From Psammoneis japonica (lineage: Eukaryota): a DNA stretch of 64,000 nucleotides. A program made the position numbers and the translations under genes. Shown piece by piece: positions 1-64,000 of the stretch. The stretch is taken from NCBI GenBank assembly GCA_008632985.1, contig QPGO01000033.1, positions 248,001 through 312,000 on the forward strand, in the 5' to 3' direction. Each line of letters begins with the position of its first letter. Position 1 is the first letter of the stretch. The notes beneath the pieces were generated by a model. It searched no databases. It saw nothing but the letters and a program-made list of their open reading frames with translations, and was not told the origin of the DNA.

Positions 1-2690
1 AAGAATGAGAACAGATCTTGTGAGAGACAATCTGACCAGCACCCCAAGTTCTGACCATCATGCATTGACAAGCTGGGCAATCTGCTGCTGCAATGTGCCA
101 TGTGTGGCACAAAAAAATGCTTGGTGTGACACACAGGCAAAGTCATCATGGACTCTGTGCCCCTGGAGCTGCAGAAAAGTCTGGTCTTTGGGCCATGGCC
201 TGTTGGGGTGGTGCTCCAGGGAACTGTGCTGATGCTTGTGTGCCAATTTGCCAAGGTTCCCACTTCAGTGGAGGGGTTCAGTCAAAAACAATCAAATGCT
301 CACAAATCACTTCAAGCTGTGCTTTTTCTGCTGCTGCTGTGTTTTGACATGCCAGTTGTTGTGCACTCCTGCCCAGGTGCTGGTGGTTGCCAACAACCCT
401 GCTCAGAGCCAAGACTGCCAGCTGGTGGTGAGCTCTGCAACTCAGAGACACTCAGTGGCATGTCATCCAAGCTGGTTGTGCACAAGCTCCTGCTGCCACT
501 GCACATGCTGGCAAACCAAAGCATCTTTTGTCATGGCCTTTTGCAGCTTCTTGAGTTTTCCAGGCTCCTGCAAGATGGAGTCAGCACACTCTCCTCATTG
601 CCTGCTCTGGAGCTCCATCATCAAAGCCTTCAGCATCTTCCTCATCACAGTCATTTGCCAGGGCACAGAGCTTGAGATTGAGGCACCTGTTGTCATTTCC
701 ACTGACCTGCAGAAGATCCTTGAAGCTGGTTGTTTTGCAAAGAAAAGGAAGAGGAGCCAACAACTTTTGAACTTTGCTTTCTCATCTGCCCCCTGTTCAG
801 CCAGCGAGTCAAAGCAGGCTTGCCTTGCTTTCAGGAAGGCCTGGCACTTGGGGCGTTTTTTGCCAAACCTGGGAACAAGTGCCTGTGCTGAAAAAGAAGG
901 TCAACAGAGTTGGAGATGTCTGCCCCAGCTGAAAAGGGAGCTTGGGCTCTTGCTTTGTTTCCACTTTGAACAATCTTGGCCTCTGCATCTCTGGTCTTGA
1001 CAGCATGAGGGAACTCTGCATTCCAGGAGTGAGCCAAGCACAAGTGAGGAGTTGTGAGAAAACAAGAGCAACTTGTTGAAGACTGTGCACTTCTTTTCAC
1101 ACCATCATCACTGGCAAGCCCCGCAAAATGCTTGCAGGTGGCTTGTCCATTTCTGCCAGTGCTTTGTCTGGGTTGGAGCTCTTTTGGTGGCACCTGCCTG
1201 ACACTCCTGTGCAAGAGTGGATGCACAACATTGCCTTGTGTAAAAACTTTCTTGATGTGGTCAGGATCTTCATTGTTTGGATCCCAGCCACATGCTCTTC
1301 TTGAGTCACATCAAGCTGCTGAAGTGATGGGCACACTCCAGGGCCAGGTTTTCTTCCAGCAAGGCACTTTTGATGATGCTGCTCAGCTCACAAAAGAGCA
1401 AGATGCCAGTGGCAGCAAGAGCTGCACTTTTTCTGTGGGGGCACAAGAGTCAAAAATGCAAGAGACATCTTGACGGACTAAATTTTGCACTTCTCTGCAA
1501 GTGATTGCACTTGCTTGCCTGATTGCTGAAAAGCAGCAAGAACAAACAAGAGAGTGTCTGACAAGACTGTTGACACCCCACTCATGACCAAACTTGCAGC
1601 TGGCTGGCTTGCAAAATCCAGCCAGAAATTCATGCTCCTGCTTGGGCACTGTGTCCCAGCACAGACTCATGTTCAACTTTGCCAGCAAAAAGAGCTCCAG
1701 CCAGAGTTTTTTGTTCAAAGAGGAGTTCACAAGGGAGCCCATGGCAAAGCTGCAAAAGACCTGTGTGTGGCCAGCACGTGTGTGTGTGCTCACAAGGCAT
1801 CTGATGGCAAAATTTTGCTGGCTTCCAGAGAGGCCAGAAAACCAACTTCTTTTTTGCCAAAACTTGCCCGCTCAGGTGCTGTTGCATCTCACGTGACTTT
1901 TTGATGACAGCCAACTTCTCAGTTCTTGCACACACTGCAAAAAGCTGATGCATGGCACCACAGTCTGCAGTGTGACCCTCCCCTTCTCTTTCACATTCTG
2001 ACATCAAAGAGGTTGGAAAAGAAAAAAAATGCTGGCCAGTTTGGCCAGAACCCTCCCAGATCCAGCCCAACATTTGTGTTTCTGTGCAGACTCTCTTGAG
2101 CAAGTGTGGTGGGGCAAAGGACAGTGCAGATGTTTTCATTTGCGGGAATTGAAAGTTCGCACTGAACTTGTCACTGTCATTTTTCTTCCCTGGGTGCACA
2201 GTGGGCTGCAGGCACTTTCTTGACATTTCATTCCCGCAGCAAGAGAAGGTGTGTTTTCTTTGTTGCTCACATCACAAGACAACGAAAGAAGGAGACAAAT
2301 GCAATGAGCGCCACACCGGCCACAACATGCTTGCACAGCTCAGCCAACAGTGACTTAGTTTTTCTCTTTTCTGCTGGGCACAGCTGCAGCAGAGAACAAT
2401 GCTCACACTCTCCCAGTGGAAACTGCTCAAGATCAACAAAAGACATGACAAATGTGCTGGGGGCTGCTCCATCTTCCTTTTGGCATTAAAAAAAAGTGTG
2501 GTGCCAACAAGAAAACATTGGGAAAATCTGGTTGGATTTTTGTGAAGAAGGTTTCTTGCCAGGCAGCAAGTGGCAACCCTGTCATAATTTCACTCCAGAG
2601 TTGTTCTCTTGTTTGAGAAGAGGGGTCTCCGACCTAAAAATTTCTTCTGGCAGTCGCAGGGCACATGAGTCATTTTTTGTTCACGCAAAT
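1..2690. mobile_element. Degenerate repeat/TE-derived block, TpA- and CpG-depleted (family not recognised)
   Basis: No TA seen in the first ~1240 nt and only ~7 to 2690; CG also very rare. Overlapping Tyr-free ORFs in all frames. The TE origin is inferred by analogy with the identifiable copia blocks. Confidence 0.45.
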
Positions 2691-2942
2691 TATCCACTCA
2701 CGATGGCGAAGAATTGTGAAGGGCATTAGATTCTCACATAAACTACAGTAGAGAATGAGAGAATCAAACAGTAGCAGCAAACGAGAGAAGAGCAATAAGC
2801 TAAAAGGTACCGAAACTAGATCGTCTTGAGCTAACAATGTAGATATTTTATTGCAATAACAAAAACATATAGGTGTACAAAGGTGCTTTTCTCTACACGG
2901 GCGAGAAGCCAGTTCCGTAAAGGAAGCAGAAAAAACCGGAAT

Positions 2943-6531: not shown

Positions 6532-6729
6532 ACTGTTTTTCTGTAGGAAATTCACGTTGCATTCGGCGAACTGAACCTCCCCCGCGTCATTGTTGAGTAT
6601 CGAATTTTTGTATTGTCGTTGTCCAACGGCCGGAAAATTATTCGTCGCTTTTACCGGTTATTCACATCCACAAATTTGAAGATCTACGGTGGGAATCCTA
6701 GATTGTGTGTTCGCAATTTCAAAAATAAT

Positions 6730-8675
6730 GGAGGCCCAATCTGCCCGAATCCCCCCAAAAATGTGAACCCCCCCCTTCATCATCACAAGCCTTTCATCAA
6801 TCCAATGATGAACTGTGAGACGATGAGCCAAACTGGTCGCGAGCACAATGGGTGCACTTTTTGACATTTGCATCAGCCAGCCAGGCCTGGCCAGGACATT
6901 TGATGGCCAGGCAAAGTCTCAAGTTTCCAGGCTGCGTGCCGCTTGTCAAAGCACTCAGCCCTGAGCACAAAAAAGAAAAATTTCAGTTTCATGCTGTGGT
7001 GGATGGAAAAAGAAAGCAAGTGGTGTTCATCCCCAAGATGGTGGCATCGTGCACGTCCCAGCACTCAGCCCTCAGCACAAAAGGGAAAAATCTCAGCTTC
7101 GGCATGCTGTGGTGGAGATGGAAAAAGAAAGCAAGTGGCGCTCATCCCCAAGATGGCGGCATCGTGCACAATGCTGAATCTTCCAAATGCACCATGTCAC
7201 TGTGCATTGTGGGTGGCATGTGTGTTGCCCAGGCAAGAGCTCGTCGTGTCTTGTTTTGTGTCATTTGCAACCTTCCTCAGCAGCTGGCCAAAGCCAATTT
7301 TCCATCATTTTGTGCCGGCCAGCTGGTCCAGCAAAAATGCCAGAGGAGCAGTTTGACTCACTTCTGCTCTGAGTCCAACATGCTTGACATCCACCGCAGG
7401 AGCTGCTGACAACATGACACCCAGATCTGATGACACAACACAAGCACTGCCCCAATGCTGGCTGCCACAGACTCTTTCAACATGGCGCATCACTTTCAGC
7501 ACCAACACATCTGCTGCTGCACTTTTGCAGATTTGGTTTGGACGATCCTTCCAGCACCAGCAATGCACCACACTTTCAGCTCCTCCTGATTGAACTCAAC
7601 TTCACACCACCAGATGCACTCACATCGGCGATGCTCTTGCAGCTTGCAGCTGCCCTCCTGCTGATGGCTTTGAACTCAACAGCCCTGGTTTTAATGGCAA
7701 TGTTGCTGCTTCCTTGTTTGTCTTGGCAAATGCTGTGCCGTCTTCTCAGTGTGCCCAAATCATGGTGGATGTCACCCAGCATCACTTTGCCAGTGCATCT
7801 CACAGACAGCAGCAGTTCTCCACAGGCAGGCTGCGCTGCTGATGCCTGGCTTGGCATGACACTGCCACTTCCACTTGCTCCCCCCTGCCTTGACTTCTCC
7901 TGGGGCACTGCTGCTGCAACATTTTCAATCTGACACAATGCCCATCAGTCCTCTGGCACACCCAGATCTGAGGAGGACAACCCCAGTCGATGGTGGAGCT
8001 GCACCCACCTCTGTGTTTTCCCAGCATCCAAAGGAAATGAGCCATCCTGTGCTCATGCCATGACTGGGTGGGGAGTGGTGCGGGGAGCTCTTGACTCTCT
8101 GCACAGTGTGCTGCTCTCCTCCCACTCACCTGTGGAAATTTTCAACAAAGCACAGAGGCAGCTTCTTTGGAGGTGGCAATGCAGGCCAGCACCAGCAAAG
8201 GAACACCAGGTGCCACAGATGTCAAGCTAATTTCCAAAACAATTCTTGAGAAGAGACAGCTTCTTCATGCAGCACAGGGGCTGCCTGGCCAAAACCCCAC
8301 ACGGGGGTTCAAGCTGAAGATGTGAACCAGCAACTTCCTGTTCATGAGATCTTTTGCTGTCTGCAAAATGGTGCTGCTGCACTTGGTTTCATGACTTGCA
8401 GATGAGACCCTGTTTGTCAACTGCTCCATTTTTTGACATGTTCCTGGCTGGTCATCTCTGCAGCAGATGATGCCAGCCATGGCAACAAATGGTTTCCAAC
8501 ACAAAGATCCTTGTTTTGGTTTGCACTCCAAAGGAACAGCAGCTAAAAGCAAAATGCATCACAGTCTTTAAACAGGAAACAACTGCAACACAGCAGCCAA
8601 AGCTGTCATGTCTCTTGCCCAATGAGCTCACATGAATCACTGTTGTGCACCACTTCTTCGACAGTGGGGGTTTTC
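6730..8675. mobile_element. Degenerate TpA-depleted insertion between the ATPase copies
   Basis: Only ~4 TA in ~1.9 kb, all in TAA/TTA context; low CG; internal tandem duplication. Confidence 0.45.
6951..7169. repeat. Imperfect ~110-bp tandem duplication
   Basis: gcactcagccct...ccccaagatgg(t/c)ggcatcgtgcac occurs at 6951-7054 and 7061-7169. Confidence 0.85.
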
Positions 8676-14809: not shown

Positions 14810-16057
14810 ATGTTGTCGGTTCGATCGATTCAGCTCACAAGACGGGTTTGTAGCTATAAGATACAAAGCATACATGGGCATTCTCTCAGTGCTCGACGTG
14901 TTTTCTCTACTTCTTCTAGTGCTGATGCAACAATAGCTTCGAGAGCAAAGTCGCTTCTTCCCTCCTTTCGAGGACGCTGGGCAGTGATTGCTCGCACCAT
15001 CAAGTACATACGTATCCCTTTCTTAGTTGTCAGTGTCTATGGGTTAGGGTACCAGCAAGGTATTGTGGATTATGCACGTGATCCCAGCGCCAAGCAAGAA
15101 GCACTCTTTGATTCGGTTATAGCTGGAGTGGGGTGCACGTCGAGAGACCAGGTGGATGTCATGACAAAGTCCTCGTCAAGGTTAACATTTGCGCATCATA
15201 TGCAACAAAATCACGAAATGACGCGCCGGGTAGCAAAGGTGGGTTCCCGAATTGTTAGAATGGCGCAGTTGCTGGCCAAGAAGGAACTTGAAACTGCGAT
15301 TGAGGCTGTCAAAGCGAAACTTCCGCCGGACTGTACTCAGGAGCAGCTACAGGAGCTATGCCAAGTTCATCCTGATGTGATACAGTGGGAAAAAGCCGTT
15401 CTTCGATTGGAAGGAACGCATTTGAAAGAGGACGACGATGGGTGGGCATACGTACTCATTGATACCCCTGTTGCCAATGCCTTTGTTACTGAAATCATTC
15501 CGAAGCACATTTTTATTACCACGTCCATGATGAATACCTTTATTGAAAATGATGATGAACTCGCCTTGGTATTGGGTCACGAGGTCTCTCACTTGATCCT
15601 AGGACATGTCAGCGAAGCTAACATGATACAAACATTTCTCAGGACAATCGAAGTGCTGCTTCTCAGCTTGGACCCAACCGAGGGACTTCTCAGCATTGCC
15701 ATTGTTGCTGCCTTGGCAACAACCCGTACTGCCTTGGCGGCTGCTCACTCGCGTGAAAACGAACACTTGGCCGATGATATGGGCGTTAAGATTGCCGCCA
15801 TGGCTTGCTACGATACACAACGTGCGGCACACGTGTTTTTCAAAATGCACCAGCATCACACGGAGCCAAACACTGAAGCACCATCAGCACCGTCTATTCT
15901 GAGCTTTCTAGACACGCATCCACCTAGTGTTGAGCGCCATGAACTATTGGTGTTGGCAAGCAACGAGGAAAATGTGAGTAAGTATGAAGACTCGACCTGT
16001 GCTTCGATCGGAGCACGCATCAAAGGGTTGATGGCATCAACAACGAAAAGTGACTGA
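14810..16057 (+). CDS. Peptidase M48, OMA1-like mitochondrial metalloprotease
   Basis: NAF motif, ELALVLGHEVSH (HEXXH), SRENEHLAD and FLDTHP; Arg/Ser-rich mitochondrial-type N-terminus. Confidence 0.85.
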   Translation: MLSVRSIQLTRRVCSYKIQSIHGHSLSARRVFSTSSSADATIASRAKSLLPSFRGRWAVIARTIKYIRIPFLVVSVYGLGYQQGIVDYARDPSAKQEALFDSVIAGVGCTSRDQVDVMTKSSSRLTFAHHMQQNHEMTRRVAKVGSRIVRMAQLLAKKELETAIEAVKAKLPPDCTQEQLQELCQVHPDVIQWEKAVLRLEGTHLKEDDDGWAYVLIDTPVANAFVTEIIPKHIFITTSMMNTFIENDDELALVLGHEVSHLILGHVSEANMIQTFLRTIEVLLLSLDPTEGLLSIAIVAALATTRTALAAAHSRENEHLADDMGVKIAAMACYDTQRAAHVFFKMHQHHTEPNTEAPSAPSILSFLDTHPPSVERHELLVLASNEENVSKYEDSTCASIGARIKGLMASTTKSD

Positions 16058-18825: not shown

Positions 18826-18829
18826 CGTG

Positions 18830-21800: not shown

Positions 21801-21890
21801 TAGACCCTCTGCCAAAGCACAGAGCTCATGATCATTTTGGATGATTTTAGATCAATTCTGGAGCTCAACCCCATCGCACAACAACTTTTC
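18830..21890. mobile_element. Degenerate TpA-depleted block (family not recognised), with a purine-rich GAAAA tract at 21652-21716
   Basis: Rare TA survivors almost all in TTA/TAA; Tyr-free Cys/His/Gln-rich pseudo-ORFs. Confidence 0.4.
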
Positions 21891-21896
21891 TGCAGC

Positions 21897-22195
21897 TGCA
21901 GCGCACACGTTTTTTAAGATGCACCAGCATCATCACACGGAGCCAAACACTGAAGCACCATCAGCACCGTCCATTCTGAGTTTTCTAGACACACATCCAC
22001 CTGGTGTTGAGCGCCATGAACCATTGGTGTTGGCAAGCAATGAGGAAAATGTGAGCAAGTGTGAAGACTCGACCTGTGCTTCGATCGGAGCTCGAATCAA
22101 GGGATTGATGGCATCCAACAATGCAAACTGAATGTCACATGATATTATTGTTTCATAACAGACGTTGAATTTTTGGCGGGAAGTTTTTTGGATAT
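21897..22195 (+). pseudogene. Duplicated 3' end and 3' flank of the OMA1-like gene
   Basis: Aligns to 15823-16112 (FFKMHQHH...EAPSAPSILSFLDTHPP...IGARIKGLMAS). No upstream exon is present. Confidence 0.92.
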
Positions 22196-25430: not shown

Positions 25431-25570
25431 GCTGATAGGGGCTGCAATCGAGTGTAAGTGTTAGAAAAGCACTCTCTCCACACTTATCTTACATTGGTTG
25501 ATACTGCAGGCACCGCCAGAAATCCCAGAAACGCATCAGTTCACTTTCCAGAGCTCAAAAGTCGAAGAAA

Positions 25571-29320: not shown

Positions 29321-29321
29321 G

Positions 29322-29361
<40 letters not shown>
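29321..29361. repeat. (GCT/CTG)n microsatellite
   Basis: gtgctgctgctg... about 12 units. Confidence 0.9.
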
Positions 29362-29364
<3 letters not shown>

Positions 29365-42079: not shown

Positions 42080-42189
42080 GGTACCTGAAAAGATGCTTCT
42101 GCTGTGAATAGGAACGAAGAGAGCAAAATTACCGGTACCGGTATGACGATGTCTTGACGTCGACGATCTTTGTTCTTAGTGCGAAGTAC

Positions 42190-48477: not shown

Positions 48478-51400
48478 AGTCCAGTCCCTCGCGAGTTTTG
48501 AAAATTGTGAGAATGGCGAACAATGCGAAAAAGTGGCGGTGCAAGATTGAAGTGGCCTCTTTGACACGAGTGACTCTAAATCGGATCGGCATTTGCTAAA
48601 AATTTTGTGATGTGCCATTTTCAAATAATCCAACGCACATAACTCGGAAACTATCGGAAAGAAGAATCAACCGTTTAACAGATCTTAATGTTGCCAATAA
48701 TCTCAACTATATATATGCCTTTGAATACTCTCATATTATTAAAAAAATTTTCAACAATTGGATCGCATTCTTATTGTGACAAATGTCTCCTCTAATTAGT
48801 ACAATGGAAATTTTGGTTGATTATTCGGGAATGAATAAATCGCTCCAATTATATTTTTAACGAAATGATTAACCAGTTGAACAACAACATTATTTCAAAC
48901 TTCTTTCTCAACCGACAGACGCCATCGCTGTGATTTTCGACAAAACGCTCATAACCCATAAAATCAATGTTTCTTCATCCTTCATCCAAAACGCAGACAC
49001 GCGACGCAACTCAAGTCGACCATGAGATCGGTTGCGGCGGCGGCAATATTTAACACCAAGTGTAAGAAACACCTGGACAGTATGTTAAAACCTCATTATG
49101 ATCATAAGGTAAGGGTGCTAAAGCAAGAAATCTTCATTTGATGCCTTTAATCGTCATCTGAACTTTTCACTCAATTTCTTTGTGTCTTCTGCATCCGACA
49201 CGACAGCAAATGTTTTGAAGGTGTACAGTGGAATGTATTATGCAGGTACCCATGACTTGGACGATATATTCGATAAAGGTGACATAGAAAGTCACAAGCT
49301 CTTTCTTTGGCAGTGTTTTCCGTGTCAAAAACAAAAGCAAGCGCGGCAATCCTTGCTGTCACGATCATTTTCGACAATCAAATCGGCTCAATGTCTACAT
49401 TAAACCATCCAAAAGTTTCAACCTACGCCTCACACTCCTCCCTCTATGCCTAAATGAGACGATCCTGGGTGGTTGTCAGAAGTCAAGAATCCATGCGAGT
49501 TCCTGAGGAGCCGCAAGCAGTTGGACCTCTGATCCTGTGAATGCACCAGCTCCAACCAAATCGATGCGGAGCACAGCTTAAATTGTTCACATTGTCTGCA
49601 AAGATGCTTTTTTATGCGGTCAATGCTTCTTAAGATCGGGATCAAACTGTAGAAAACACTGCCAGTGACTGGTAATTGACGACAGCTGGCCGGAACCCTT
49701 TTTACGGACACCCATTTTCATCATTTTGAGTGCACGGAACGATGCGTAGTTTGTCAACAATGTAGATTTAAGGCTTGACAATGGTCCAGGAAGCATCCAC
49801 TACATAGAAGGACATTGAATATGAGTAGTGGCAAGAGTCAACAAAAACAATAAGTGCCATTGAAGCCCAAAAGTGGATTTGATCCGGAACTTGGTGAGCG
49901 CAAGCAGTTCTCTCTTGAAGGCTCCAAGCGCTAGAAATCATCACTTCAATGATAAGAATAGATTATAAATGCGTAATATGATAAATTAGCATGGACTAGT
50001 GCTTAGAATTGCTGGTTAAAACCAGGAGTCGTCTCCTACATTGCAAATTGTCTCCGGTGGTAGATTGGCAGATTTGTGGGTCCACCAGCTTGCGGGTTCT
50101 CACGTCCTTGAATTGCTCTTTTGTTTCCTTGTCTTGCCCATAGTAGCTTCCTTTATTACATGAAGGGGCTCTCTAATTCCTTGAACAACCCCTCCTCATG
50201 AATTTCTTGGCATTCTGAGTCGATCAGGCGGTTGCGACAGGACTAAGGCGACGGATGCACTTGTGGATGAGCTCTTGTTTTCAGCTCAGCATCACCTCCC
50301 ACAACAGTCAGGATATTTTCTCCTTCATCTCGATCATAAATATCGACGAATGAACGTTATCCCATACCACACCTTCTATGTTGAACCTTGAGAACGTCGC
50401 CTGAAGTTGTCGGAAGCAGCGACATCGGGTGAAACAAGTGGGCGGCAGCAAAAGTCTTTTTTTCGCTCTGCAAGTGGCAAAAGTCGCAATGTTTTTAGAT
50501 GGAACGATAGTCATATAAGTTAATGATGAGATACAATCGAAACATTGCGAGTTTTGACCCAATGACACAAGCAGTAACGTTCTTACCGATGAACGGCGAC
50601 TCACCATTTTCGTTCCGTAACTTTTACGCATTTTTTGCACTGGGAATTGTGGGAGGCAGATCTGAATTTCGGCCCAAAAAAAAGAAGGAAGGAGCGGCTT
50701 TTCAGCACTGCCGTAGAATCTACGTGCAAGATGACGTCACAGTACAAAATGCCATTTCTACGCAGCGGTGGCCGCTCCGCGAGCGTCGTGTATAGCCGTA
50801 GGCCCGGTACATTGTCTGTTCTTCCATCCGCTACAGAAAAATCATACGAGACATTGTGTAGAGTGTCATCTCATAACCTTTTCAACTTTTCAGCACCTCA
50901 CATTTTTTTCTTTCCGAGCAACATCAACATGAAAAACTCACATCGCTTCTTCCTTTGGATGAAACGATCATACAGCAGGACATGTGTTTGTACGATGCTC
51001 GCAATGTTTTGGGTCCCACACGCGCTCAAGTGATTTTTTGAAGGGCTCGTCTCAGCCAAGAGTCGCCACACAGAAACAACAGTTCAGTTGCTCAGTCCGA
51101 CATGGAGTCTTTGGGTGCTTTGTTGGAGCGAGCATGAGTCGCCCGAGGTGGTGGTGAAGGTGATGGTGGTTTCGTCGAAGGGGACACCAGGGGCTTGGCC
51201 GTGCTTTGCACAGATGGATTCGGTGATGGCGGCGGTGCTGGGTGGGTGTCTTTGCAGGACTTGTGGCGTCAGAGGTTGGGCGGAGGGAGGTGTGTGCGGC
51301 ATTGCTGCGTTTGCATTGGCACAGATGGCGTCATTGATGGCGACGTTGACGCAGGCGGTGTTGTTGTCTCTGGATCTGGAGCAGCCGGCAATTCAGCCAG

Positions 51401-52167
51401 CGGCACTGGCGCAAGTGGGGACACTTGGCGGCGATTGCGCTGGCAGCATGTTGGAGTCATCGCTGACGGCTGACGGCGGAGGCGGTGTTGTGCCGGCAGG
51501 AGCAGGCATCATTTCAGTCTGTGGTGTTGGAGTCGACCACATTGATGCAGACCTCATTGAAGCTGCCTGGGAGGTGTTGGATGTTGGCAGCGAAGGATGG
51601 CTGTGCGGGACTTGTCGTTGGAGGTCGGAGGGAGAGTTGGGTTCGGCATTGCGGCGGCATTGGGTGGCAGTCTGTGTGGGATTTGGTGTCGGAACTAGAC
51701 AGAGTGAACAGCCCACTGGTTTTCTTAAAAGCAACTTGAATGCTGCAGTCTGCTTTGTGCAAAACCAGGGTGCCAGATCATTTCAGGAATGCAGGTTGGT
51801 CACACGGACTGGCTGCCTTAGCTACGAACACCTGCTTCTGTCACAATGTGTGTGACAGAGAGGTGCAATCCAAACGGCGAGGCGTGAAACGCATGCGAGA
51901 GCATGCTGCAACACTGTCATGGATCGGCTTAGACACCATTGCCACAAAATGTGAGAGTGCGTCATTTGCATCGCCACCAAGAAGATTGATGATGACACAC
52001 ACGGCAGTCTGGATGACACATTTCGGAAATGACATGATTGAAGAATTCTCGGCATTGGACAAACACATTCAAGATTCACTTGTTCATAAAAAGGAAACGA
52101 CTTGATCTGTTGATTCTCAAGGCATGACAACCACAACAACGTGGATTGCTGCCAGTGCAAATGATGA

Positions 52168-52443
52168 TGACAGGATTTGAACAGGATTTGGGTGCGCGCG
52201 AAATGTCGCGCGCTGTTCAGTTTACCGCGCACAGTTTTGTGTGCTTTAGTTCCGCACGTTCGCGCGCGATGTAGTTTGCTTTTGAGCCACAAGGCTCACA
52301 AGAACAATGACAGCAGCCCGATTGCACCGACTTGCACGTCTTTCGGCTCCTGCAACGGTCTCTGAGCGGAGACTCATCTGCCATTTAGACAGCAGTGAGG
52401 AGTTGTTGTTTGAATTCTTGCCATTTGCCTTCAATTTCTGTCA
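52168..52443 (+). repeat. 5' LTR
   Basis: Direct repeat of 59000-59277 with TG...CA termini. Confidence 0.95.
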
Positions 52444-53382
52444 GATTGACAGTCTTGCTCATTGTCAACCCATTGAGCAACCGCCATCATCGTCGTTGAT
52501 TTACCAACGACGCCATTTCAATTCTGCGTGGACCTCCGCATGTGTTCTACACACATCGGCAAGTCTACGCGCATTCAATGCCAGGGCATCGGCAGGAAGT
52601 TAACGTCACCGTCAAGTCTCTGTGCCGCTGGATGTCTGGATTGATCATGCTGCCTTTGGTCGCTGAAGACACACATTCAACGGTCACATCCAAGTCTGTC
52701 CTTGATCCTCATCCCTTCGTGTGCCTGTTCATCGGTTGACGGTCAAGAACCCTGCACATTCAAGGATCTTCGTCGCTGAAGACACATGCATGTGCACATG
52801 TCTTCACGGCCAAGAACCTGTGCCCACTCTTCGGACTGCGGTTTTGCCACCACTCTACAAGCACACCGAGTCCATTGCACCTGATCTGCCCCGGACTGCT
52901 GGTGCTCCACAGTTCTGCCAGGTCCACGAGGACGACTGTGAGAGCAAGCAGCCGTGATTGCAGCCTGCGTTGGGGCGAGGGTGCTTTCCCGCGTTTGTTC
53001 GTTCGTCCACAGTGCCTGACGCCTGCGTCAACTGGCCAGCCTGATCGGGAAATCCAACCAATGTAAAATGAGAACGGTTCGGGGGTCTTGTCCACCTCCA
53101 GTCAGCTCACCTGCAGGGGATTGCAACCCGCCACTCCGCTCGCAAGCAACCCAAAGCGCCGCTGGCTGCGGGTTCGGACGTGCCGGCACAACTCTGCGGA
53201 CCGGATGGGAAGTTTAGCACTTGACAACGAATGGGACAGCAAAGCCCGGCGACTTCTGATTTTAAGACAGTTCAAGATTTCAAGTCAAGCACATTTCAAG
53301 TCAAGTCAATTCTCACCCAAGCTTCAAGTCCACCTTCGCTTCCCAACAAGAATTGCTTGTCCTGACACCACTTTTGTCTGCC

Positions 53383-56300
53383 ATGGTTCTCACCCGTCAG
53401 CAACAAACCGATGGTTTCGAGCATGTTGTTGGAACCGTGCTTGCCCAAGGTGCTGGGAGCCCTCTCCGTTTGGCTTTGGCACAAGACGGCACGGACTCGC
53501 ATCAAGAACTGTTCACGTTCACACCGTCCCAAATCGACTCGCTTGAGTGCGACAACGGCGCTAATGTGATCCCTTTGCCCCGTGGTTATAAGAACATGTT
53601 AGCAGCTCTGGTCAGTCTGTGCATTGTCAAAGCACACAAAGGTCTTGATGTTGCCAATGACTTCTCGTTGTTCATGCATGACGAGTTCCTTGCCCACCGC
53701 CTCAGCCCCGACTGCATGTCTTCTGTGTCCATCGGCAGCTCACCCCTCGCACCTCTGCATGTCACCAACCCGACCAAGGCACGTGACCCGGTGCGGGACT
53801 TCAAGCAAGGCATCAAGCGTGATCCCACCGCTTTCACGGCTCTCAAATCTGACAAGCAGTGGCACACTTGGCACACCTCACTTGTGGCACAAGCCCGTGC
53901 CCAAGATGTCGAGTGCATTCTAGACTCGTCGTACAAACCGACCAGCCCCGAAGACAAACTGCTCTTTGCTGAACAGCAAAAGCACATGTTCGCCGTCTTC
54001 GAACGCATCCTTCTCACTGACAAGGGCAAGGCTCTCATCCGCGAAAATGTGGGGTCTTCTGACACACAGACCGTCTGCCGCGCCTTGTCTGAGTGCGCGC
54101 TCGCCTCCACCCGCGCATCTGTCGAGTCCTCCACCCTGCTGACGCACCTTGCCACCGCACGTCTTGGTGATGGCACTTGGAAAGGTCCAACCCACGGGTT
54201 CATCCTTCATTGGCAAGATCAGTTGCGCAAGCACGAGGCACTCATCCCGGCCAGTGACCACTTCTCTGAAGGACAGAAGCGTGTCATGCTCGAGAATGCC
54301 GTGCACCCTGTCGAGGAACTCCGTGCTGTCAAGAACCAAGCTGATCAGCATCGCACGCAGAGTGGCAAGAGCCTCACACATGATCAATGCTGTGGCTTGC
54401 TCCTCTCCGCGGCAGCCCAATGCGACAGTGCGTTTCAACCCAAGACGACACCTCGAGCTCCCCACCGCTCCATGTGCGCACACGACGTCTGCTCCGAGGA
54501 ACCGTCCGACGATGTGTTCTGCGACATTGACAGTGACATTGACGTCCTTCAGGCCAATGCTGCCTGCACCCGTGGTCCCAGCCTCACCGGTGACCAATGG
54601 AAACATCTCCCTCCCGACCACCAACGGATTTGGGATTCGTTGCCCCATTCCTCCAAGGCGATCATCCTTGAGCATTCTCGTCCGCCTCCCCGCAACCCGC
54701 GAGACAGCAACCACCATGAGTCCGTTGCGGCCAACCTTCACGACCAATGCCTTGGGAGTGACGGTGATGTCAACTTGTCCAACACGCCTCCTGCTGACTC
54801 TGGTGACTCCGCTCCAAATGTGGGTGCCACTTCGGACAATCCCATCCTGGCGCACCTCACCAAGCGCAAGCCACTGCCACCCGGTGATCTGCACCGTCTG
54901 TTGTCTCCTAACCAAGCCCCCAATGCCAGTCGACCGGGGCCATCCGCCGCTCCCTCTACCCTGCCAGCTTGTGCCGATGACATGGAACTTAACGGCTGCA
55001 CTTGCCGCCGCGTCAATGACCACAATGTCATTTGCTCTGCCTCTGCTCATCGCTCCACACGCACTGGCGCTCTAGTTGATCGTGGGGCCAACGGTGGCAT
55101 TGCTGGCGACGACATTCGCGTCATTGCACGCACCTCTCGCCACGTCGACGTTCAGGGCATTGACGACCATCAATTGGTGGACATCCCCATTGTCACCGCT
55201 GGTGCCGTCATTGAGACCCAGCATGGTCCCGTCATCGCCATCCTCCATCAGTGCGCACACGCGGGAAAGGGCAAGACCATCCATTCCTGCGGCCATCTCG
55301 AATGGCACAAACAGGATGTCAACGATCGCTCTGTCAAGGTGCCCAACGGCTTGCAACGTGTTGCCACTCCTGATGGCCATGTCATCCCCATTGACATCAA
55401 GGCCGGCCTGCCTTGTGTTGCCATGCGACCTTGCACTGATGCCGAATGGGACACCCTGCCCCATGTCATCCTCGCCGGTGATGACACATGGGATCCTTCC
55501 ATCCTCGATCACTCTGTCACTGATGACGACCAGTGGCATGACGCGATCTCTGACCTGCAGGACGATCCCACTGCCAACCTGTTTGACGAATGCGGCAACT
55601 GCCGTCATCGTGTCGTTGTCAACGAGACCATCATGTCCGCTTCCTTGTCTGCCGATCACGCGTCCGCCCTCGATGATCACCTCATTCCGAATGACGACGT
55701 GTTCTGCGAGTGTCATCTGCACGTGATTGACCCCAAGGACGACGACGTCCCGCCCCCGGAGCGCACTGTGCAGCCCAAGGACCCGCCCTTCGAGTCTCTT
55801 TGGCCCCACTTTGGCTTCCCACCTGCCGATGCGGTCCGTCGCACTTTTGACTGCACCACGCAGTGTGCCCACATGCCCGCCGGTGCACACCTTGGGAAGG
55901 CCTGCAAATCACCCAACCCCGCCCTTAATGTGCACCGCCGCAACGAGCCTGTCGCCACTGACACCGTTCATGCCGACACCCCGGCCGTCGACTCTGGCTG
56001 CACCAGTGCCCAACTGTTTGTTGGCACCGAGTCTACCGTCACTGACGTCTGCGGCACCAAGATGGACAAAGAGTTTGTCAACACACTCGAGGATCAGATC
56101 CGTGAGCGTGGTGCCCCATCCAAACTCATTGGCGACCGTGCTCAAGTTGAGATCAGCAACAAAGTGCTCGGGATCCTGCAGGCCCTCTTCATCTCCAGCT
56201 GGCAAAGTGAGCCTCACCAGCAACACCAAAACTTTGCCGAGCGTCGACACCAGACCGTGAAGCGCATGGCGAACACTGTCATGGATCGTTTTGGTTCGCC

Positions 56301-59052
56301 CGCCCACACATGGCTGCTGGCGCTCATGCATGTGTGCTTCACACTCAACCACACAGCGTCCCCACGTCTCCACTGGCGCACACCCCTCGAGACTCTCACT
56401 GGCTCCACCCCGGACATCAGCCCATTGCTTCGCTTTCACTGGTGGGAACCCGTGTGCTTCCACCTCGATGACTCCGATTGGCCGTCCGAATCCCGTGAGT
56501 TGCGTGGACGCTTCGTTGGCATTGCTGAGCACGTCGGCCACCAGATGACCTTCAAGATTCTCTCTGATGAGACTCAGAAGATCCTCTGCCGGTCCAACGT
56601 CCGCTCTGCTGCCACCGATCCTGCCGTTCGAAACCTGCGTCTTGATCCTCCTGATGGGGAGCCACCTGAACCCATCATCAAATCTCGCCATGACGACAAC
56701 CCCGTCGATTCTCCTGATGGGGAGATCAGGACACCCAAGATGCCAGTTTTTGATCCGCAAGACATCATTGGACGTGCCTTCCTCATGCAGCCACAAGAGG
56801 ACGGACAACGCCACAGAGCTCGCATCGTCAAGGCCGTCGAAGACCACGAATGGAAAGTGAACGGCAATCCCGAGCTCACTGAGTTTGTCTGCTCTGTCAA
56901 CAATGACGAATGCGAGGAAGTCCTTGCCTGCAATGACATCATGAATCACATTGAGCAAGAAGACGAAGACACTGCCATTTGGAAATTTCGACGCATCGTG
57001 TCACACGAAGGACCTCTGAAGCCTCACGACCCAACCTGGAAAGGCTCAAGCTACAACATCATGCTTGAATGGGAAAGTGGGGAGATCACGTCCGAGCCTC
57101 TTGCCATCATCGCCAAGGACGACCCCGTCACCTGCGCCATCTGTGCACGAGAGAACGGACTCCTCGACACGGATGGCTGGAAGCGGTTCCGCACCATCGC
57201 GAGGCGCCAAAAGAAGCCATTTCGCATGGCCAACCAAGCCAAGCTTCGCTCCTTCTGCACTGCACCTCGCTGCAAGTGCGGATGCGAAGTTCCCCGGAAC
57301 TGCAAACACGCCATGTCACTGGACGAACGCAATGGCAACCGCAAATGGGGAGACGCAACTAATCTCGAGATGGACCAACTCGACGAATACGAAGTCTTCC
57401 ATGACTGCGGGCCCTTCGAGTCTTCCACTCCTCCTGCGGGACACAAGAAGATCCGAGTGCACCTGGTGTGCGACGTGAAACACGACGGTCGCCACAAGGC
57501 ACGACTCGCAGCCGACGGGCACCTCACGGACGTGCCTGTCGACAGTGTCCACTCTGGAGTGGTCTCCCTCCGTGGCCTTCGGCTGATGATTTTCTTGGCC
57601 GAACTCAACGAGTTGGAGACATGGGCCACCGACATTGGCAATGCCTGCCTTGAAGCCACCACCAAGGAGAAGCTTTACATTGCAGCTGGACCCAAATTTG
57701 GCAAACTCGAAGGACACATCCTTGTCATCCACAAGGCCCTGCATGGACTGCGCAGCTCCAGTCTCCGCTGGCACGAGCGCTTCGCCGACTGCCTGCGAGC
57801 TGAAGGCTTCTTCCCCTGCCGCGCTGAACCCGACATTTGGATGCGCAGGAACGGCGACCACTGTGAACACATTGCCGTTCATGTGGATGACCTCGCCATT
57901 GCCATGAAGGACCCTCAATCTTTCGTCGACACTCTCACGGAAAAGCACAAGTTCAAGCTCAAGGGTGCGGGACCCATTGAGTTCCATCTGGGTTGCGACT
58001 TTTCCCGGGACCCCGACGGAACCTTGTGCCTGTCTCCGCACAAGTACATCAAGCGCATGGTCGACAGCTGCGCCCGACCGTTTGGGGAGAAACCTGCCAC
58101 CAACGTCCTGTCACCTCTGGAGAAGGGTGACCACCCCGAACTGGACACTTCCGAACTGCTGGGACCCGATGGCATTCACAAGTTCCAGTCTCTTGTTGGT
58201 TCACTCCAATGGGCAGTGTCCCTTGGTCGAATTGACATTGCCACGGCCATCATGTCACTCTCTAGCTTCCGAGCTGCACCCCGTCAAGGCCACTTGGATC
58301 GTGCCAAACGCGTCTGTGGGCACCTCTCCAAGATGCGACACGGCGCTCTCCGCGTTCGCACGGAAGAGCCCGACTGTTCGGATCTCCCTGCTCCGGCCTG
58401 TGAATGGATGCATTCCGTGTGCGGCGAAGCAGAAGAGATGATCCCGAAGGACGCTCCACTGCCCCTTGGCAAGTTCGTCACTGCCACCCACTACGTCGAT
58501 GCAAACTTGCACCATTGCATGCTCGCCGGACGCTCTGTCATGGGAATGCTCCACTTCCTCAACAAATTCCCAGCTGATTGGTTCTCTAAGAAGCAAGCCA
58601 CCGTGGAGACTGCGACCTGCGGGTCTGAATTTGTTGCCACAAGGACTTGTGTCGAGCAGATTGTTGACCTGTGCATCACCCTGCGCTGCCTTGGCGTCCC
58701 GATCCGCAATGTCAGTTACATGTTCGGTGACAACAAGTCGGTTGTAGACAGTGCCACCATCCCGCACTCCAAGTTACACAAGCGACACACCGCACTGTCG
58801 TTCCACCGTGTGCGTGAGGCAATTGCCTCTGGTCACCTTGAGTTCCACTTCATCGAAGGCTCCCGTAACCCTGCTGACATCCTCAGCAAGCATTGGGGTT
58901 GCTCCCAAATCTGGGACCTTCTCCGCCCCCTCATGTTCTGGAACTTCATTTCATCCGAAGTCGAATCTGTTTCTGTGACTCCTCAAGCAAACTGGGGAGT
59001 GACAGGATTTGAACAGGATTTGGGTGCGCGCGAAATGTCGCACGCTGTTTAG
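53383..59052 (+). pseudogene. Copia gag-pol polyprotein, open but probably inactivated by Tyr>His/Cys substitutions
   Basis: Protease LVDRGANGG; integrase ATDTV...D...SEPHQQHQNFAERR; RT HKARLAADG, DIGNACL, KALHGL and HVDD; RNase H KKQATVETATCGSEF, GDNKSV and NPADILSK. Confidence 0.92.
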
Positions 59053-59277
59053 TTTGCCACGCACAGTTTTGTGTGCTTTGGTTCCGCGCGTTCGCGCACG
59101 ACACGCAGCTTGCCTTCGAGCCACAAGGCTCACAAGAATGACAACAGTGGCCCGATTGCACCGACTTGCACGTCTTTCGGCTCCTGCAACGGTCTCTGAG
59201 TGGAGACTCATCTGCCATTTAGACAGCAGCAAGGAGTTGTTGTTTGAATTCTTGCCATTTGCCTTCAATTTCTGTCA
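59000..59277 (+). repeat. 3' LTR
   Basis: Direct repeat of 52168-52443. Confidence 0.95.
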
Positions 59278-61190
59278 GATGATGCTGCCAGTTTGCTGGC
59301 ATGCCGGCAGGCTGCTGTTGCGAATCCAGCAAAAGGAGTCATGATCAATTTGAAGCAACCATTGTTTTTCTTAAAACTGTTCAATGCATGTGTCAATGAT
59401 GGGAGAACCTCTTGCGATGGGGTCTTTGGCTCGTCACTCGCACTCTGTCGGAGGCAGCAAATGGCACAAAAATGAGGTTGACTCACTCAAATGTAAAAAA
59501 CACAACTCAAATGGAGTTTGGGAAGCGGAGCCGCCAAACAGGAACCTTTTTGTGGGTATAAGAAAGACATTCATGCCCCGATTCCGCTTCCCATGTCAAC
59601 ATTGAGGCCACCGCAATCGACACAGTCATCATGGTGGGACGGTGTGTTTCGCCGTGCAAAAAGCACGGGAGTGTCGGAAGGGTGGACGAACACCGGGCAG
59701 AATATTTGAGTCGAAGTATTCGAGCTATAAGGTCCCTCCACGTAGGGCCTTTCACGCACATGGTGTCTCGCTCTTCCGAATTGCAATGAGTTATTGGACA
59801 TCGCTCCTTGCCTGTCGCCAAATTTCTTCTCGTGTGTCGTGTAAAGCATCGCATATATTATAATATATGGTCACGGGAAATAAAACGCACCGTGTCTTGT
59901 TTCTGCGTCACCAAGAGAAAGGAGAACCACGTTGTTGTTCGTCCAATCACTTGTTCCGTGTCAGGGCCGCAATCCCATCATGAATCATGAAAATCTCCGA
60001 CAGCGCAGTGACCCGGCAACACAAGAAAAAGCATCACGACTTGACGCGTGGAGCGTGATCATATCGCTGACGAAGTCGATCAAAGCCATCTCTCGAGCTA
60101 GCAGAAAGATGCGTGCTGTTACTGACCTTCGTAACGCGTTTCGCAGTGTGCTCTTGCGAGATGCGATTGCAGCAGAATTCGGCATTCGGCGTTTCACTTC
60201 GGCACTAAAAATATCGTGATTTAGCTTGGAGGGAATGAGAAACGTTTTCATGGACGCAACGACGAATAGGTCCGAACATATGCTCGTGCGGAACCGGCTT
60301 TTGCTGCTAAAGATATTTCAGACTCACTGACACTCATCAGAGCAGAGCGTTTCATGGCGTCCTTCGTCTCTTACCAAGATGGTGCGTGAAATCAAATACA
60401 ACAAAAATATGACAACTCTAGATAGCGCTGTCCCTGTTTGGTTATTTGTTCGTCAGACAGTTTTTTTTATACCGTATAAAGCTCCAGCGTAGCAGTAGTA
60501 ACTCAAACGACATTTTAAATAATGAACACGTACCACGCGAAATGTGCCTCTTTCGTCCTTTCATTCGTAGCACAGGTGTGCCCCACCTGCAGTTATCGAT
60601 AGGACCCATGAGATTCTTTCTTTTCTCAAGCTTATTTTCGGTGTTATTGTTCATCTGAGCGTCTTATCCACATTGTTGCAGCGACTGTTAGGAAAAGATA
60701 AATTCCACTAATATTTGCGCGACAACGCGATGCAGATAACGAAGCTCGTTATTGACAACCAATGCCCTAACGTAGCTTCTGGATTTGCTGAGAAGGAGTG
60801 GCACAACTTTGATGGTACACCTCTCTTTGCGAACGACAGCTCTAGCATGAAAAAAGAACGCGGTGGTGGTGCTCTAGTATCGCTTGCATGAAATGTGTGC
60901 ACACCAACAAAACCGAAAAATACTCGCAAGTTGTTGCACCTTGGTTGCTCCGACAACAGCTAGAGGTAAAAGAAAGAAAACGATTACCCAACAACTGGCG
61001 TCCACGAATCAAAACGGAAAAGTTTTACGCAAAAGTACCTAAATAGAGCGGTCTCACTCACTAGCAGAAGCACAACCTCGAGCGAGAAAATCCAAGCTCA
61101 CATTACACCCGTCACAAACAATGAGAACATGTCCCCCTTGTTACAGACTCTCGTAGAGCAGCAGCAAAGGATGAATTGTGCCAAATCTCC

Positions 61191-61469: not shown

Positions 61470-61889
61470 GGTGATTGCCACAGGTAAGGCCCCTTACACA
61501 CTCTCAACACCCCTTACACGCTCTCAACGTTTTGAATTAGGGGATTTATGTGGCCCCTCACTTCTTGTCGGTCTTGTTGAGGCTGGTGGGAAGTCGTATT
61601 GGCTGTAATCGTCGATTTGAACAAGAGTCGGAAGTTGTGAAAGGCGCAAATCAAATCAGTTTCGAATAAACATCTCTTTATAAATTTCATATTAATCCAA
61701 AATGTCTTTTCTATTATTCGGACATCAATTTTATTTGGTAAGCTCACCAAAGTTTTTTGGTGGTCAAACACGACACACCGTGTCTTGTCTATCAATTCCT
61801 TATTTAACAGTTCGTAGTTTAGTAGAATTGATTTTTTTGTCGAAGACATGCGGAGCATTGATTACCTTCATGAATATAGATATGAATAA

Positions 61890-64000
61890 TCTGCTGGAGG
61901 ATGACACTTGGCATGCCACCCAAAACACCACTTTGACCACTCCGCCAATTCCCGTGGCCCGCATCATCTGACTCCACTGATCGTCGTCATCATTGAGCAG
62001 AGGACAGTTCTTTTTCACCTGCCCAACCTTGTCACATTTCCAGCATTTGATCTGCTTCTTCTTGCTTCTTGTTTTGCACAAAACTCACGCCTGCCCAAGC
62101 AAGGCTCGTTGCTTGTCAGCATGCAAAGGAGCAGAACCCTCTTGAATGAACCCAAGTTCTCAAAGGACAGAATGAATGCACAAGACCCATTTGGCAGTGG
62201 CACCAGCAGCACAGACCTTGGCTTCAGCAGAACTCACAGCAGTCACCACCTGTGTCTTGCAGCGATGCAAGGCAGCAGCACCACCAGCCAACATGAGGGC
62301 ATGCCCAGCAGCGGGGTGCTGATTGCAAAGGGCAGCAGCTCCACATGTGACATCCAAGAAAGCATGGAGTTGAGTGAGAGTCAGAGGATGGGAGCTGGGG
62401 CAAGGAATCTTCAAACTCAAGTTGCTCAAAAAGGAGCAGCAACGGCAATGTGTGATCCTTGGCAGGCTTCTTGCAGCTGATGCCCCAATGCTTCGTGCAA
62501 CACAGATGCTGGGTGCAACACCTTTCAATGCCATGCAATGTGTCAAGGCTGGGTCAGAGGCAAACTTTGACAATGTGGCAATTGTGTGCCCAGTGTCAAG
62601 GTGGCAGATGACATGTGCACCAAGCAATTCACCAAGCAGGTTGTGACACCCGACACCCAAAACCTTGTGCTTCTGCCAGCTCAGCATGACTGGGGGCGCC
62701 TTTTGCAGGCCAACATCAGAGTGCAACTTGGAACCAAACTCAACAAGGAGAGGAGCAGCCTGGAAATCAGAGCCCAACTCATCTGCAACAGGTTTCAACC
62801 CAGCAATGCAGCCATGACAAGCAACGGAAGTGTGGTCATTGCGCCGGTGGACATCCACACCATTGAACTCAGCACAGAGCCCCAAATGCTTCAAAGGCAT
62901 TTCATCCTTGCCAGGGAGTCACAGTGGCTCACCAATCAAATTTTGAATCTTGATGGCAAATGATTCCTCCAGGCATGCAACTGAGAAGTCATCAACCTGT
63001 TGGAGGAGGAGAGCATGACACTTGCCATCAAAAGTCCCACAATGGGTGCACTTGTCATGAGCAGCACTCCAAAAAAGGAGTTTTGCATCTGCCAATGTTG
63101 TGCTGATGCGATTCTCCCACAGAGCACTGGACTCAGGGTGCCCCTGCAGAGCATGAAGGATGTCAGCAGTGCCGCAGATTGGCCCAGGTCAGTCTGGGCA
63201 CCAAAGTGGTCCTTGCACCATGTGGCATGGGCTTCATCTGCTTGGATGCAAACAGGGGCTGAGGGATGCAGGGAGTGGGCACACCCATTTCAGGCATTGC
63301 CAGAGTGGAGCCAGCAACTCAGAAACTAAGAGCACAAAAAACAGCCATTGAACAGGTTGTTCCATGCAAGAAGAATGGGCACACTGCAGGCAATGCAAAG
63401 CAGGAGCCGCTTGAGGAGATCCATCACAACAGCATTGAGAACAACGTGTGTCATCTGTCTTGATGTTGTGTTGCCAGTGGAGTTGCAATGCAACAGCACC
63501 TTGTGGATGGGGTGTTGGAGCACCAAACATTCCAAGTGCAGCTGTGAAAGTGATCAAGTTGCTTGAATTCAGCATTGTGCCAAAGGGGCCAAAATCTTGT
63601 GAGGTGCTGCAGGCAATTCCAAGTGAAGCCATCCAGCTCTTGTTCCTCTGGGTCACTGCAGACATGCAAGGGTGTGTTTTCAACTTGGGCGGTGCACTGT
63701 GAGGACAATTTGAGAGGTTCTCTGTGCATTTCTGTGAGACACACATTTTTGGCACCACTGACAGCATTGAGCTCCTGTGTGGCAATGGAGCGTGACATCT
63801 GCAACACCAGCACTTGACTCACATCTCCAGATGTGCAAGGTGTTCTTGAAATGAAGCATGCTGTGTCATTGTTGGGGTTTTCAAGGTCAGAAGAGCAAAA
63901 CGTCATTGTTGCATTGCTGTCTGTGTGGGCTTCATTCTTGGCACAAAAAAGTTGGGTTGGCAACAACTTCTGCTTCACCAACACACCTGGTGTGCCACGT
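61890..64000 (-). mobile_element. Highly degenerate second copia element (RT-RNase H remnants), joined to a zinc-knuckle fragment; continues past the window end
   Basis: Minus-strand remnants HWQHNIKTDDTRCSQCCCDGS, FNGVDV, IATLSKFASDPA, KTQVVTAVSSAEA and CWKCDKVGQVKKNCP. Frameshifted; one TA seen in ~2 kb. Confidence 0.8.

Follow-up and report, generated by a model that had tools for sequence, protein, structure and literature searches.

The subject of this work is a 64,000-nucleotide (nt) stretch of the genome assembly of the diatom Psammoneis japonica (GenBank assembly GCA_008632985.1, contig QPGO01000033.1, forward strand; hereafter the window, with coordinates counted from its first base), in which eight blocks of DNA have lost almost every TA dinucleotide (TpA) by conversion to TG and CA. 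Block 7 holds a Ty1/Copia retrotransposon and block 8 what is left of another, distinct Copia-type element. Between the blocks lie ordinary genes, which encode P-type ATPases, an amino-acid kinase, an M48 peptidase, a cyclin, an importin, a sulfotransferase, a folate dehydrogenase and an FAD monooxygenase. For the folate dehydrogenase, all of the best named relatives come from diatoms, with identities that do not exceed 70%. An earlier note, made from the sequence alone, had claimed that repeat domains in this stretch underwent TpA>TpG/CpA hypermutation, and we followed that claim up by comparing the affected DNA with homologues, with duplicated copies in the window and with the literature.

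Eight TA-poor blocks in the window

The whole window contains 1,628 TA, an observed/expected ratio (o/e) of 0.40, with a corresponding excess of CA (1.37) and TG (1.38). Along 500-nt intervals, the TA o/e was 0–0.2 in the blocks that the earlier note had named, as against 0.3–1.0 elsewhere, and the ratio for TG+CA was 1.5–2.0. When blocks were called by a two-state hidden Markov model on the TA positions, eight were recovered, with coordinates close to those given earlier (Table 1). Together they sum to 25,793 nt (40.3% of the window) and hold 91 TA (o/e 0.06), while the remaining 38,207 nt outside the blocks hold 1,530 (o/e 0.59). The note had also described the first 1240 nt as free of TA and the last 2 kb as having one; TA indeed first occurs at 1241, and a single one, at 63327, lies in the last 2,113 nt. 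Its statement that the DNA between blocks has ordinary TA and tyrosine (Tyr) content can be set beside a Tyr content of 0.8–3.9% in the host open reading frames (ORFs). Likewise, both recognisable retroelements do lie inside TA-poor blocks.

The clustering of TA loss into blocks is far beyond chance. The window has 29 TA-free gaps of at least 250 nt, the longest being 1,501 nt. When the same 1,628 TAs were placed at random 2,000 times, such gaps averaged 2.65 (maximum 8) and the longest gap never exceeded 576 nt; shuffling the bases locally, 300 times, produced no TA-free gap of at least 250 nt at all. The sequence of the blocks is complex and does not consist of simple repeats. Some of the edges are razor sharp, with TA-dense sequence directly abutting TA-free sequence (at 6727, 22142, 24541 and 61888).

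Table 1. Coordinates of the TA-poor blocks, the retroelement features and the duplicated gene end in the window (LTR, long terminal repeat; RT, reverse transcriptase)
Feature	Coordinates	Strand	Description or basis
Block 1	1..2584		cut by window start; 4 TA (o/e 0.024), 13 CG (o/e 0.08), CA+TG o/e 1.76
Block 2	6727..8543		spacer between two ATPase gene copies; 2 TA (o/e 0.019), CG o/e 0.21; left edge razor sharp
Block 3	17567..22142		17 TA (o/e 0.059); CG o/e 0.39 overall, 0 in core; right end holds the mutated M48 end copy
Block 4	24541..25435		895 nt between cyclin and importin genes; 4 TA (o/e 0.074), CG o/e 0.68
Block 5	29049..31952		14 TA (o/e 0.087); CG o/e 0.15 to 1.13 along block; ~150-nt tandem repeats at 29947-30513
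Block 6	42188..44589		4 TA (o/e 0.027); CG o/e 0.8 at both edges, 0 in core
Block 7	50992..59493		45 TA (o/e 0.109), CG o/e 0.83, GC 56%; Copia element and TA-poor flanks 50992-52162 and 59283-59493
Block 8	61888..64000		cut by window end; 1 TA (o/e 0.008), CG o/e 0.17
Ty1/Copia LTR retrotransposon	52168..59277	+	RVT_2 E 5.6e-23; LTR pair; 5-bp target-site duplication 52163-52167 and 59278-59282
5' LTR (TG...CA)	52168..52443	+	comparison with 3' LTR
3' LTR	59000..59277	+	comparison with 5' LTR
Polyprotein P0001	53266..59049	+	open frame of 1,928 codons; Tyr 0.41%
RT active-site motif	57880..57891	+	consensus YVDD reads HVDD (TA>CA in Tyr codon); coordinates computed from residue 1539
P0242, RT/RNase H end of second, different Copia-type polyprotein	62163..62918	-	ESM Atlas lead, then HMMER
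M48 gene-end parent, unmutated (ancestral state)	15823..16056	+	3' end of intact Peptidase_M48 gene (14636-16057)
M48 gene-end duplicate, mutated	21897..22134	+	BLAST and MAFFT against 15823-16056; copy of last 234 nt, 89% identity, edge of block 3

As to the origin of the blocks, blocks 7 and 8 hold the two Copia-type elements, and no family was recognised in the other six. Among 141 stop-to-stop ORFs of at least 70 amino acids (aa) from the blocks, none scored above the curated Pfam cut-offs, with three weak sub-threshold rows; those of block 1 gave no Pfam family at E≤0.01, and 16 further block ORFs gave one sub-threshold row only. A tblastn search with eight Copia homologues matched block 7 alone, and the ESM Atlas returned nothing for 18310-19125 in block 3. 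The reading frames of the blocks are open in all six phases, which does not speak for a function. Outside the blocks, three long ORFs, at 31894-33354 (486 aa), 46192-47289 (365 aa) and 16537-17385 (282 aa), also matched no Pfam family.

Short repeats, tandem or dispersed, occur within some blocks, at 29947-30513 (~150 nt), 6950-7169 (~110 nt) and 30513-30599/30850-30936 (~87 nt), with 78-90% identity between copies. The differences between these copies are mostly transitions; sites reading CA in one copy and TG in the other occur in the 150-nt and 87-nt pairs, and there are none in the 110-nt pair.

Direction and strand of the change

The element in block 7 is assigned to Ty1/Copia by an RVT_2 polyprotein (P0001) lying between TG...CA LTRs and by a 5-bp target-site duplication. 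Counted over 52168-59280, there are 38 TA where 335 are expected. A search with P0001 gave 1,423 homologues at E≤1e-3, of which 120 were listed and 29 of those aligned. Each of the 29 contains 3.3-4.4% Tyr, against 0.41% in P0001, and the range among the 120 listed is 2.9-5.0% (mean 3.86, standard deviation 0.34). In the 38 alignment columns at which at least 80% of the 29 homologues have Tyr, P0001 has cysteine (Cys) 18 times, histidine (His) 12 times, Tyr five times, phenylalanine (Phe) twice and tryptophan once, so that 30/38 are Cys or His. At the codon level, Tyr>Cys means TA>TG and Tyr>His means TA>CA. Conserved residues of other types, with at least 19 columns each, were kept at 82-100%, apart from threonine (Thr) at 70%, with five changes from Thr to alanine. 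Among the converted residues is Y1539 of the YVDD motif, which is near-invariant in the alignment of homologues. Furthermore, 12 changes in P0001 require A>G in the first base of the codon, and seven of them are preceded by T, compared with a frequency of T of 23% at third positions overall. In this element, ~87% of the conserved Tyr codons are converted and CpG is nearly intact.

The sequence around the Copia element is itself TA-poor, at 50992-52162 and 59283-59493, with a GC content of up to 60% and near-normal CpG, and no family was recognised there. These flanks could belong to an older insert, or the process could have spread past the element.

The remnant in block 8, P0242, has no Tyr in its 252 residues. 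A HMMER search at E≤1e-3 gave 146 relatives, the matches lying in the C-terminal part of long polyproteins. In the eight columns where 60% or more of 46 homologue segments have Tyr, P0242 has Cys four times, His twice, and serine and alanine once each (Cys/His 6/8). Seven conserved arginine (Arg) columns read H4 C1 Q1 R1, the products of CpG decay.

A third comparison comes from DNA that is not a transposon. The M48 peptidase gene is itself intact, and the right end of block 3 holds a duplicate of its 3' end; only this fragment copy is mutated. Of the six TA in the parent, three became CA, two became TG and one, in CTAG, was kept; of the 12 parental CG, three became CA, two became TG and seven were kept. 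The fragment also carries indels and five transversions. The two P-type cation ATPase genes provide the opposite case. They form a tandem duplicate on the minus strand (2950-6237 and 9178-12465) with 98.1% identity over 3,288 nt; the 63 differences between them are ordinary and fall mostly at third codon positions. Both copies look intact, and block 2 lies in the spacer between them. Since the tandem copies are untouched and only one M48 copy is mutated, duplication is not the trigger.

P0001, P0242 and the M48 fragment provide three independent lines of proof that the change ran from TA to TG and CA, as the earlier note had proposed for either strand. Because the homologues are Tyr-normal, these Copia families are not natively free of Tyr or TA. 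Both strands are affected about equally, as seen from the numbers of Tyr>Cys and Tyr>His changes in P0001 (18 and 12), from the parity of CA and TG in all eight blocks (the counts differ by no more than 11% in any block) and from sites that read CA in one LTR and TG in the other.

The LTR pair bears on when the changes arose. The two LTRs differ by 21 substitutions, all of them transitions, 19 of which fall within TA, CG, CA or TG steps. Four are TA versus CA/TG, seven are CG versus CA/TG, eight columns make up four CA-versus-TG sites, and two are TT/CT; one TA and 16 CG are retained in both LTRs. A site that is CA in one LTR and TG in the other is what would be expected if a single ancestral TA (or CG) had been hit twice, independently. 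As LTRs are identical at integration and these now differ, the changes arose after integration, on DNA and in place, which bears out the note's placing of the process at the DNA level. Moreover, since the differences include TA-derived sites, RNA editing before reverse transcription is excluded.

It follows from the genetic code that TA>TG/CA changes cannot create stop codons. TAA>TGA exchanges one stop for another, TAA/TAG>CAA/CAG and TAG>TGG remove stops, and codons of the form xTA become sense codons. Since no stops can be created, dead elements keep very long open frames.

CpG loss, neighbouring bases and relatives in metagenomes

CpG, too, is depleted in seven blocks (o/e 0.08-0.68); the exception is block 7, where it is near normal (0.83). 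The ratio goes to zero in block cores and is higher near the edges. At edges such as 42188-42330 and 61888-62000, CpG is kept and TA loss is uniform up to the edge, so that TA erasure extends further than CpG decay. Between the inside and the outside of the blocks, the frequency of TA is 0.0035 versus 0.0401 and that of CG 0.0355 versus 0.0541, as compared with 0.1050 versus 0.0771 for CA and 0.0996 versus 0.0721 for TG. The combined loss of TA and CG (0.0552) thus equals the combined gain of CA and TG (0.0554), and the total of pyrimidine-purine steps is 0.2436 inside and 0.2434 outside. Inside the blocks, the o/e of CA and TG is 1.61 and 1.67; AA and TT are not depleted (1.20 and 1.25 inside, 1.12 and 1.14 outside).

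Decay of the methyl-CpG type is evident from the low CG ratios in seven blocks together with the replacement of Arg by His, Cys or glutamine at six of seven columns in P0242. Such decay of 5-methylcytosine, CpG>TpG/CpA, is also seen at several metagenome Copia loci (CG o/e 0.1-0.25), but those loci keep their TA (o/e 0.43-0.78), whereas the Copia element here is TA-poor with near-normal CpG. It accounts for the loss of CpG only and cannot yield the loss of TA. As a rough estimate from the sequences compared, TpA would mutate much faster than CpG, and both far faster than other sites.

The TAs that survive in the blocks are not a random sample of contexts. Counted inside/outside the blocks, they number 0/101 for ATAT, 1/244 for ATAC or GTAT, 1/179 for ATAG or CTAT, 6/212 for ATAA or TTAT, 4/132 for GTAC, 14/221 for CTAC or GTAG, 15/188 for GTAA or TTAC, 6/74 for CTAG, 27/126 for CTAA or TTAG and 17/60 for TTAA. 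In a per-strand model, in which the base after the adenine matters, the order of loss is TAT >> TAC > TAG > TAA; read on the thymine, it is ATA > TTA. The accompanying CpG loss and this dependence on the 3' neighbour go beyond what the earlier note had described.

The same kind of conversion appears in proteins from metagenomes. Among the 146 relatives of P0242, 14 have no more than 1% Tyr and 7-18% His+Cys. Ten of the low-Tyr relatives were traced, all to ENA metagenome contigs of 545-11,045 nt. At nine Tyr columns, 74 of the 90 cells of these 14 proteins are Cys or His and two are Tyr, and Arg is mostly retained. Being only 26-32% identical to P0242, they are other elements. One of them, P0247, belongs to a family with 38 matches at E≤1e-10, in which relatives of 50-66% identity have 4-6.7% Tyr; low-Tyr members are P0400 and P0426 (ENA) and P0424 (JGI), with 0-0.33%. 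At 16 Tyr columns, P0400 reads C9 H5 F1, having kept 132/142 other conserved residues, and P0399 is half converted (C6 H2 F2 Y5), as compared with Y15 F1 in two normal controls. Copies with Tyr>Cys/His changes in both ENA and JGI mean that, at the protein level, the signature is present in independent assemblies from two collections.

Two observations on these relatives may be added. Fragments of the Copia-type RT/RNase H region from ENA and JGI that lack Tyr and are rich in Cys and His at conserved Tyr columns comprise P0247, P0297, P0312, P0344, P0350, P0351, P0371, P0376, P0381, P0384, P0400, P0424 and P0426. Six metagenome loci with related Copia elements (L003, L004, L010, L045, L055 and L063) have a CpG o/e of 0.10-0.24 and an ordinary TA o/e of 0.43-0.78, that is, CpG decay without TpA erasure.

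Known processes, rival explanations and meaning

The earlier note knew of no described natural system with this signature, and in that respect it has been overtaken. In the accessible text of a preprint on mutation-accumulation lines of the chlorarachniophyte Bigelowiella natans, sequenced on the Illumina platform, 231 of 302 single-nucleotide mutations fell in giant-virus and virophage inserts, and 230 of those 231 were A>G or T>C changes, every one of them at TpA (Mettrop et al., bioRxiv 10.64898/2026.01.13.699255). That text gives a rate of ~6e-7 per site per generation, with hypermutation in some lines only, describes 324 coding sequences that are poor in TpA, with RT and DDE domains enriched among them, as well as 124 clusters of windows poor in TpA and rich in CpA+TpG, and proposes an ADAT2-like deaminase as the enzyme (10.64898/2026.01.13.699255). 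It was the only report of the TpA>TpG/CpA signature in the literature searched, and we found none for diatoms. The signature is thus no longer undescribed, and the window represents a second, distant lineage for a hypermutation known from a single 2026 preprint.

What the two cases share, on the accessible text, is that the changes are almost only A>G/T>C, at TpA, on either strand and in discrete domains (of foreign DNA there, and here of retroelement DNA in two of the eight blocks), and that the loss of TpA goes together with a gain of CpA+TpG in clusters of windows. They differ in host, a rhizarian there and a stramenopile here. They also differ in state: the B. natans mutations are de novo, in inserts that still have 3.3% and 9.2% TpA, whereas here the process is read from near-saturated LTR retrotransposons and unassigned inserts with 0.35% TpA. 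The terms 'diatom', 'CpG', 'flanking' and 'trinucleotide' are absent from the main text of the preprint, in contrast to the CpG co-depletion and flanking preference seen here.

In the window, the process is TpA-specific, acts on both strands within sharply bounded domains, is independent of duplication, appears to be much faster than CpG decay and is saturating. We think it probable that what the blocks record is a region-targeted, DNA-level, post-integration TpA>TpG/CpA hypermutation of inserted and transposon DNA, of the same kind as in B. natans. Under this proposal, TpA in inserted DNA would undergo A:T>G:C changes, whichever the strand, until hardly any TA is left; TAT/ATA would be lost fastest and TTAA most slowly. 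No duplication would be needed, and the process would stop within a few bases at the domain edges. Elements would be killed by missense changes, Tyr being turned into Cys or His (as in YVDD to HVDD), and TAA and TAG stops would be removed as well; a slower decay of the methyl-CpG type (CpG>TpG/CpA) would run in the same domains. For the chemistry, we tentatively favour enzymatic deamination of an adenine preceded by T, by a TadA/ADAT2-like deaminase acting on DNA, with the resulting hypoxanthine pairing with C. The outcome may serve to inactivate transposons, as a defence, rather than being the by-product of a silencing mark.

Several points weigh against this proposal. No origin could be recognised for six blocks, so the description 'transposon or foreign DNA' is shown for two blocks only. 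The preference for a 3' T agrees neither with ADAR, which favours a 3' G, nor with TadA, whose site is UACG. The DNA was found in one sequencing sample only, possibly the source of the assembly. For the first Copia family, the signature was absent from all 120 listed proteins, and none of 79 metagenome loci came near a TA o/e of 0.11 (range 0.43-1.02), one of the two search patterns being Tyr-containing and hence biased against converted copies. Finally, the footprints in metagenomes are at the protein level only, and a hypermutated query may preferentially draw hypermutated matches.

Next to the deaminase among the leading candidates, though in our view unlikely, stands a modification of the thymine. 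A TET/JBP-type dioxygenase would modify T in TpA, to 5-hydroxymethyluracil (5hmU) or a further oxidised form, as a mark that silences repeats; the modified T would occasionally pair with G, giving T>C on either strand, and TpA loss would be a by-product, just as CpG loss is of 5-methylcytosine. The palindromic dinucleotide target with its strand-symmetric outcome, the sharing of domains between TA loss and CpG decay, and the neighbour effect, equally readable as ATA > TTA on T, all suit this idea, which presumes that oxidised thymine is mutagenic. To our knowledge, 5hmU is not known from diatoms. A precedent exists in dinoflagellates, which belong with diatoms to the stramenopile-alveolate-rhizarian (SAR) lineage: according to the accessible part of one article, their 5hmU is made by TET/JBP enzymes, is enriched in repeats and silences transposons, and older work cited there found T to be replaced preferentially in TA and TC (PMC11572971). 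The likeness thus extends to the lineage, the enrichment of a thymine mark in transposons and the sequence preference, but the mark as described in that part is a modification and not a reported mutation signature (PMC11572971). Since an A>G change, seen from the opposite strand, is T>C, the sequence does not separate a deaminase from a thymine modification.

An artefact of sequencing or base-calling, in which dense TpA and CpG modification in silenced DNA was misread and the TAs are still present in the cell, appears very improbable. The finding of the DNA in a single sample would suit it, and because strand-discordant reads at a modified site could yield CA or TG at random in the consensus, the LTR argument alone is insufficient against it. 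Nevertheless, related but different elements in ENA and JGI assemblies share the Tyr>Cys/His changes, including the half-converted P0399, and run X1 contains 0.99 of the 31-letter words, which would be unlikely for noisy reads (X1 is not independent). In addition, the old blocks have lost all detectable homology and not just TA and CG, the M48 fragment also carries indels and its five transversions, and, according to the accessible text of the preprint, the B. natans process was seen in Illumina-sequenced lines.

Error-prone patch repair, by a Pol eta-like enzyme with WA>WG errors recruited to T:G mismatches arising from 5-methylcytosine deamination in methylated repeats, we regard as highly improbable; the earlier note had named Pol eta among its candidates, and this is not supported. 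It would explain why CpG decay and TpA loss share domains, and the two TT/CT differences among the 21 in the LTRs are AA/AG on the other strand. On the other hand, ApA and TpT are not depleted inside the blocks (see above), P0001 shows few K>R and N>S changes, and, with ~87% of TA lost from the Copia element and its CpG almost intact, the supposed trigger would have been rarer than its supposed consequence.

There is next to no case for a RIP-like process triggered by duplication, or for a natively TA-poor composition or selection against TA, though repeats are affected and TA is under-represented genome-wide, judging by the ratio outside the blocks. The fungal process of repeat-induced point mutation (RIP) is similar in being dense, transition-only and both-stranded and in inactivating transposons in place on DNA, but it changes C:G to T:A, mostly at CpA, and so makes TpA and stops, whereas here A:T>G:C destroys TpA and makes no stops; the earlier note was right to call the two opposite. 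RIP also needs duplication and mutates both copies, unlike the untouched 3.3-kb ATPase duplicate (98% identity) and the single mutated copy of the M48 pair, and the Tyr-normal homologues speak against native composition.

Editing of the retroelement transcript by an ADAR-like enzyme (A>I) followed by reverse transcription, suggested by A>G changes with a 5' U/T preference (ADAR prefers a 5' U) in retroelements, can be dismissed, as both strands are affected, LTRs identical at integration differ at TA-derived sites, and the non-transposon M48 fragment and non-coding flanks are converted too. More generally, animal ADAR and APOBEC also cause deaminase-type hypermutation of selfish elements, but they do so on RNA or single-stranded cDNA, before integration and on one strand, and the APOBEC changes are G>A/C>T. 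We accordingly rejected Pol eta, RIP, RNA editing and a native composition, each of which failed in the tests above.

Editing of genomic DNA from A:T to G:C is hardly known in nature, the single case being the 2026 chlorarachniophyte preprint. A second, distant lineage, with saturated LTR retrotransposons and with converted proteins in metagenomes, argues that the process is general and not a curiosity. The window also adds testable details, namely the TAT >> TAA neighbour rule, the sharp domain edges, the independence from duplication and the decoupling from CpG decay. For annotation there is a warning, in that dead elements retain very long ORFs, since the process cannot make stops. Should the enzyme prove to be an adenine deaminase acting on DNA, the engineered adenine base editors would have a natural counterpart in it. 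Diatoms may possess a dedicated base-editing defence, an idea we advance with some reserve, that recognises new retrotransposons and inserts and erases TpA on both strands in sharp domains, by means of an adenine deaminase or a thymine-oxidising mark. Such a defence would be shared with chlorarachniophytes, being either ancient in SAR or repeatedly arisen, its footprints, transposon ORFs without Tyr and with much Cys and His, would be common in environmental metagenomes, and it would be the mirror image of fungal RIP.

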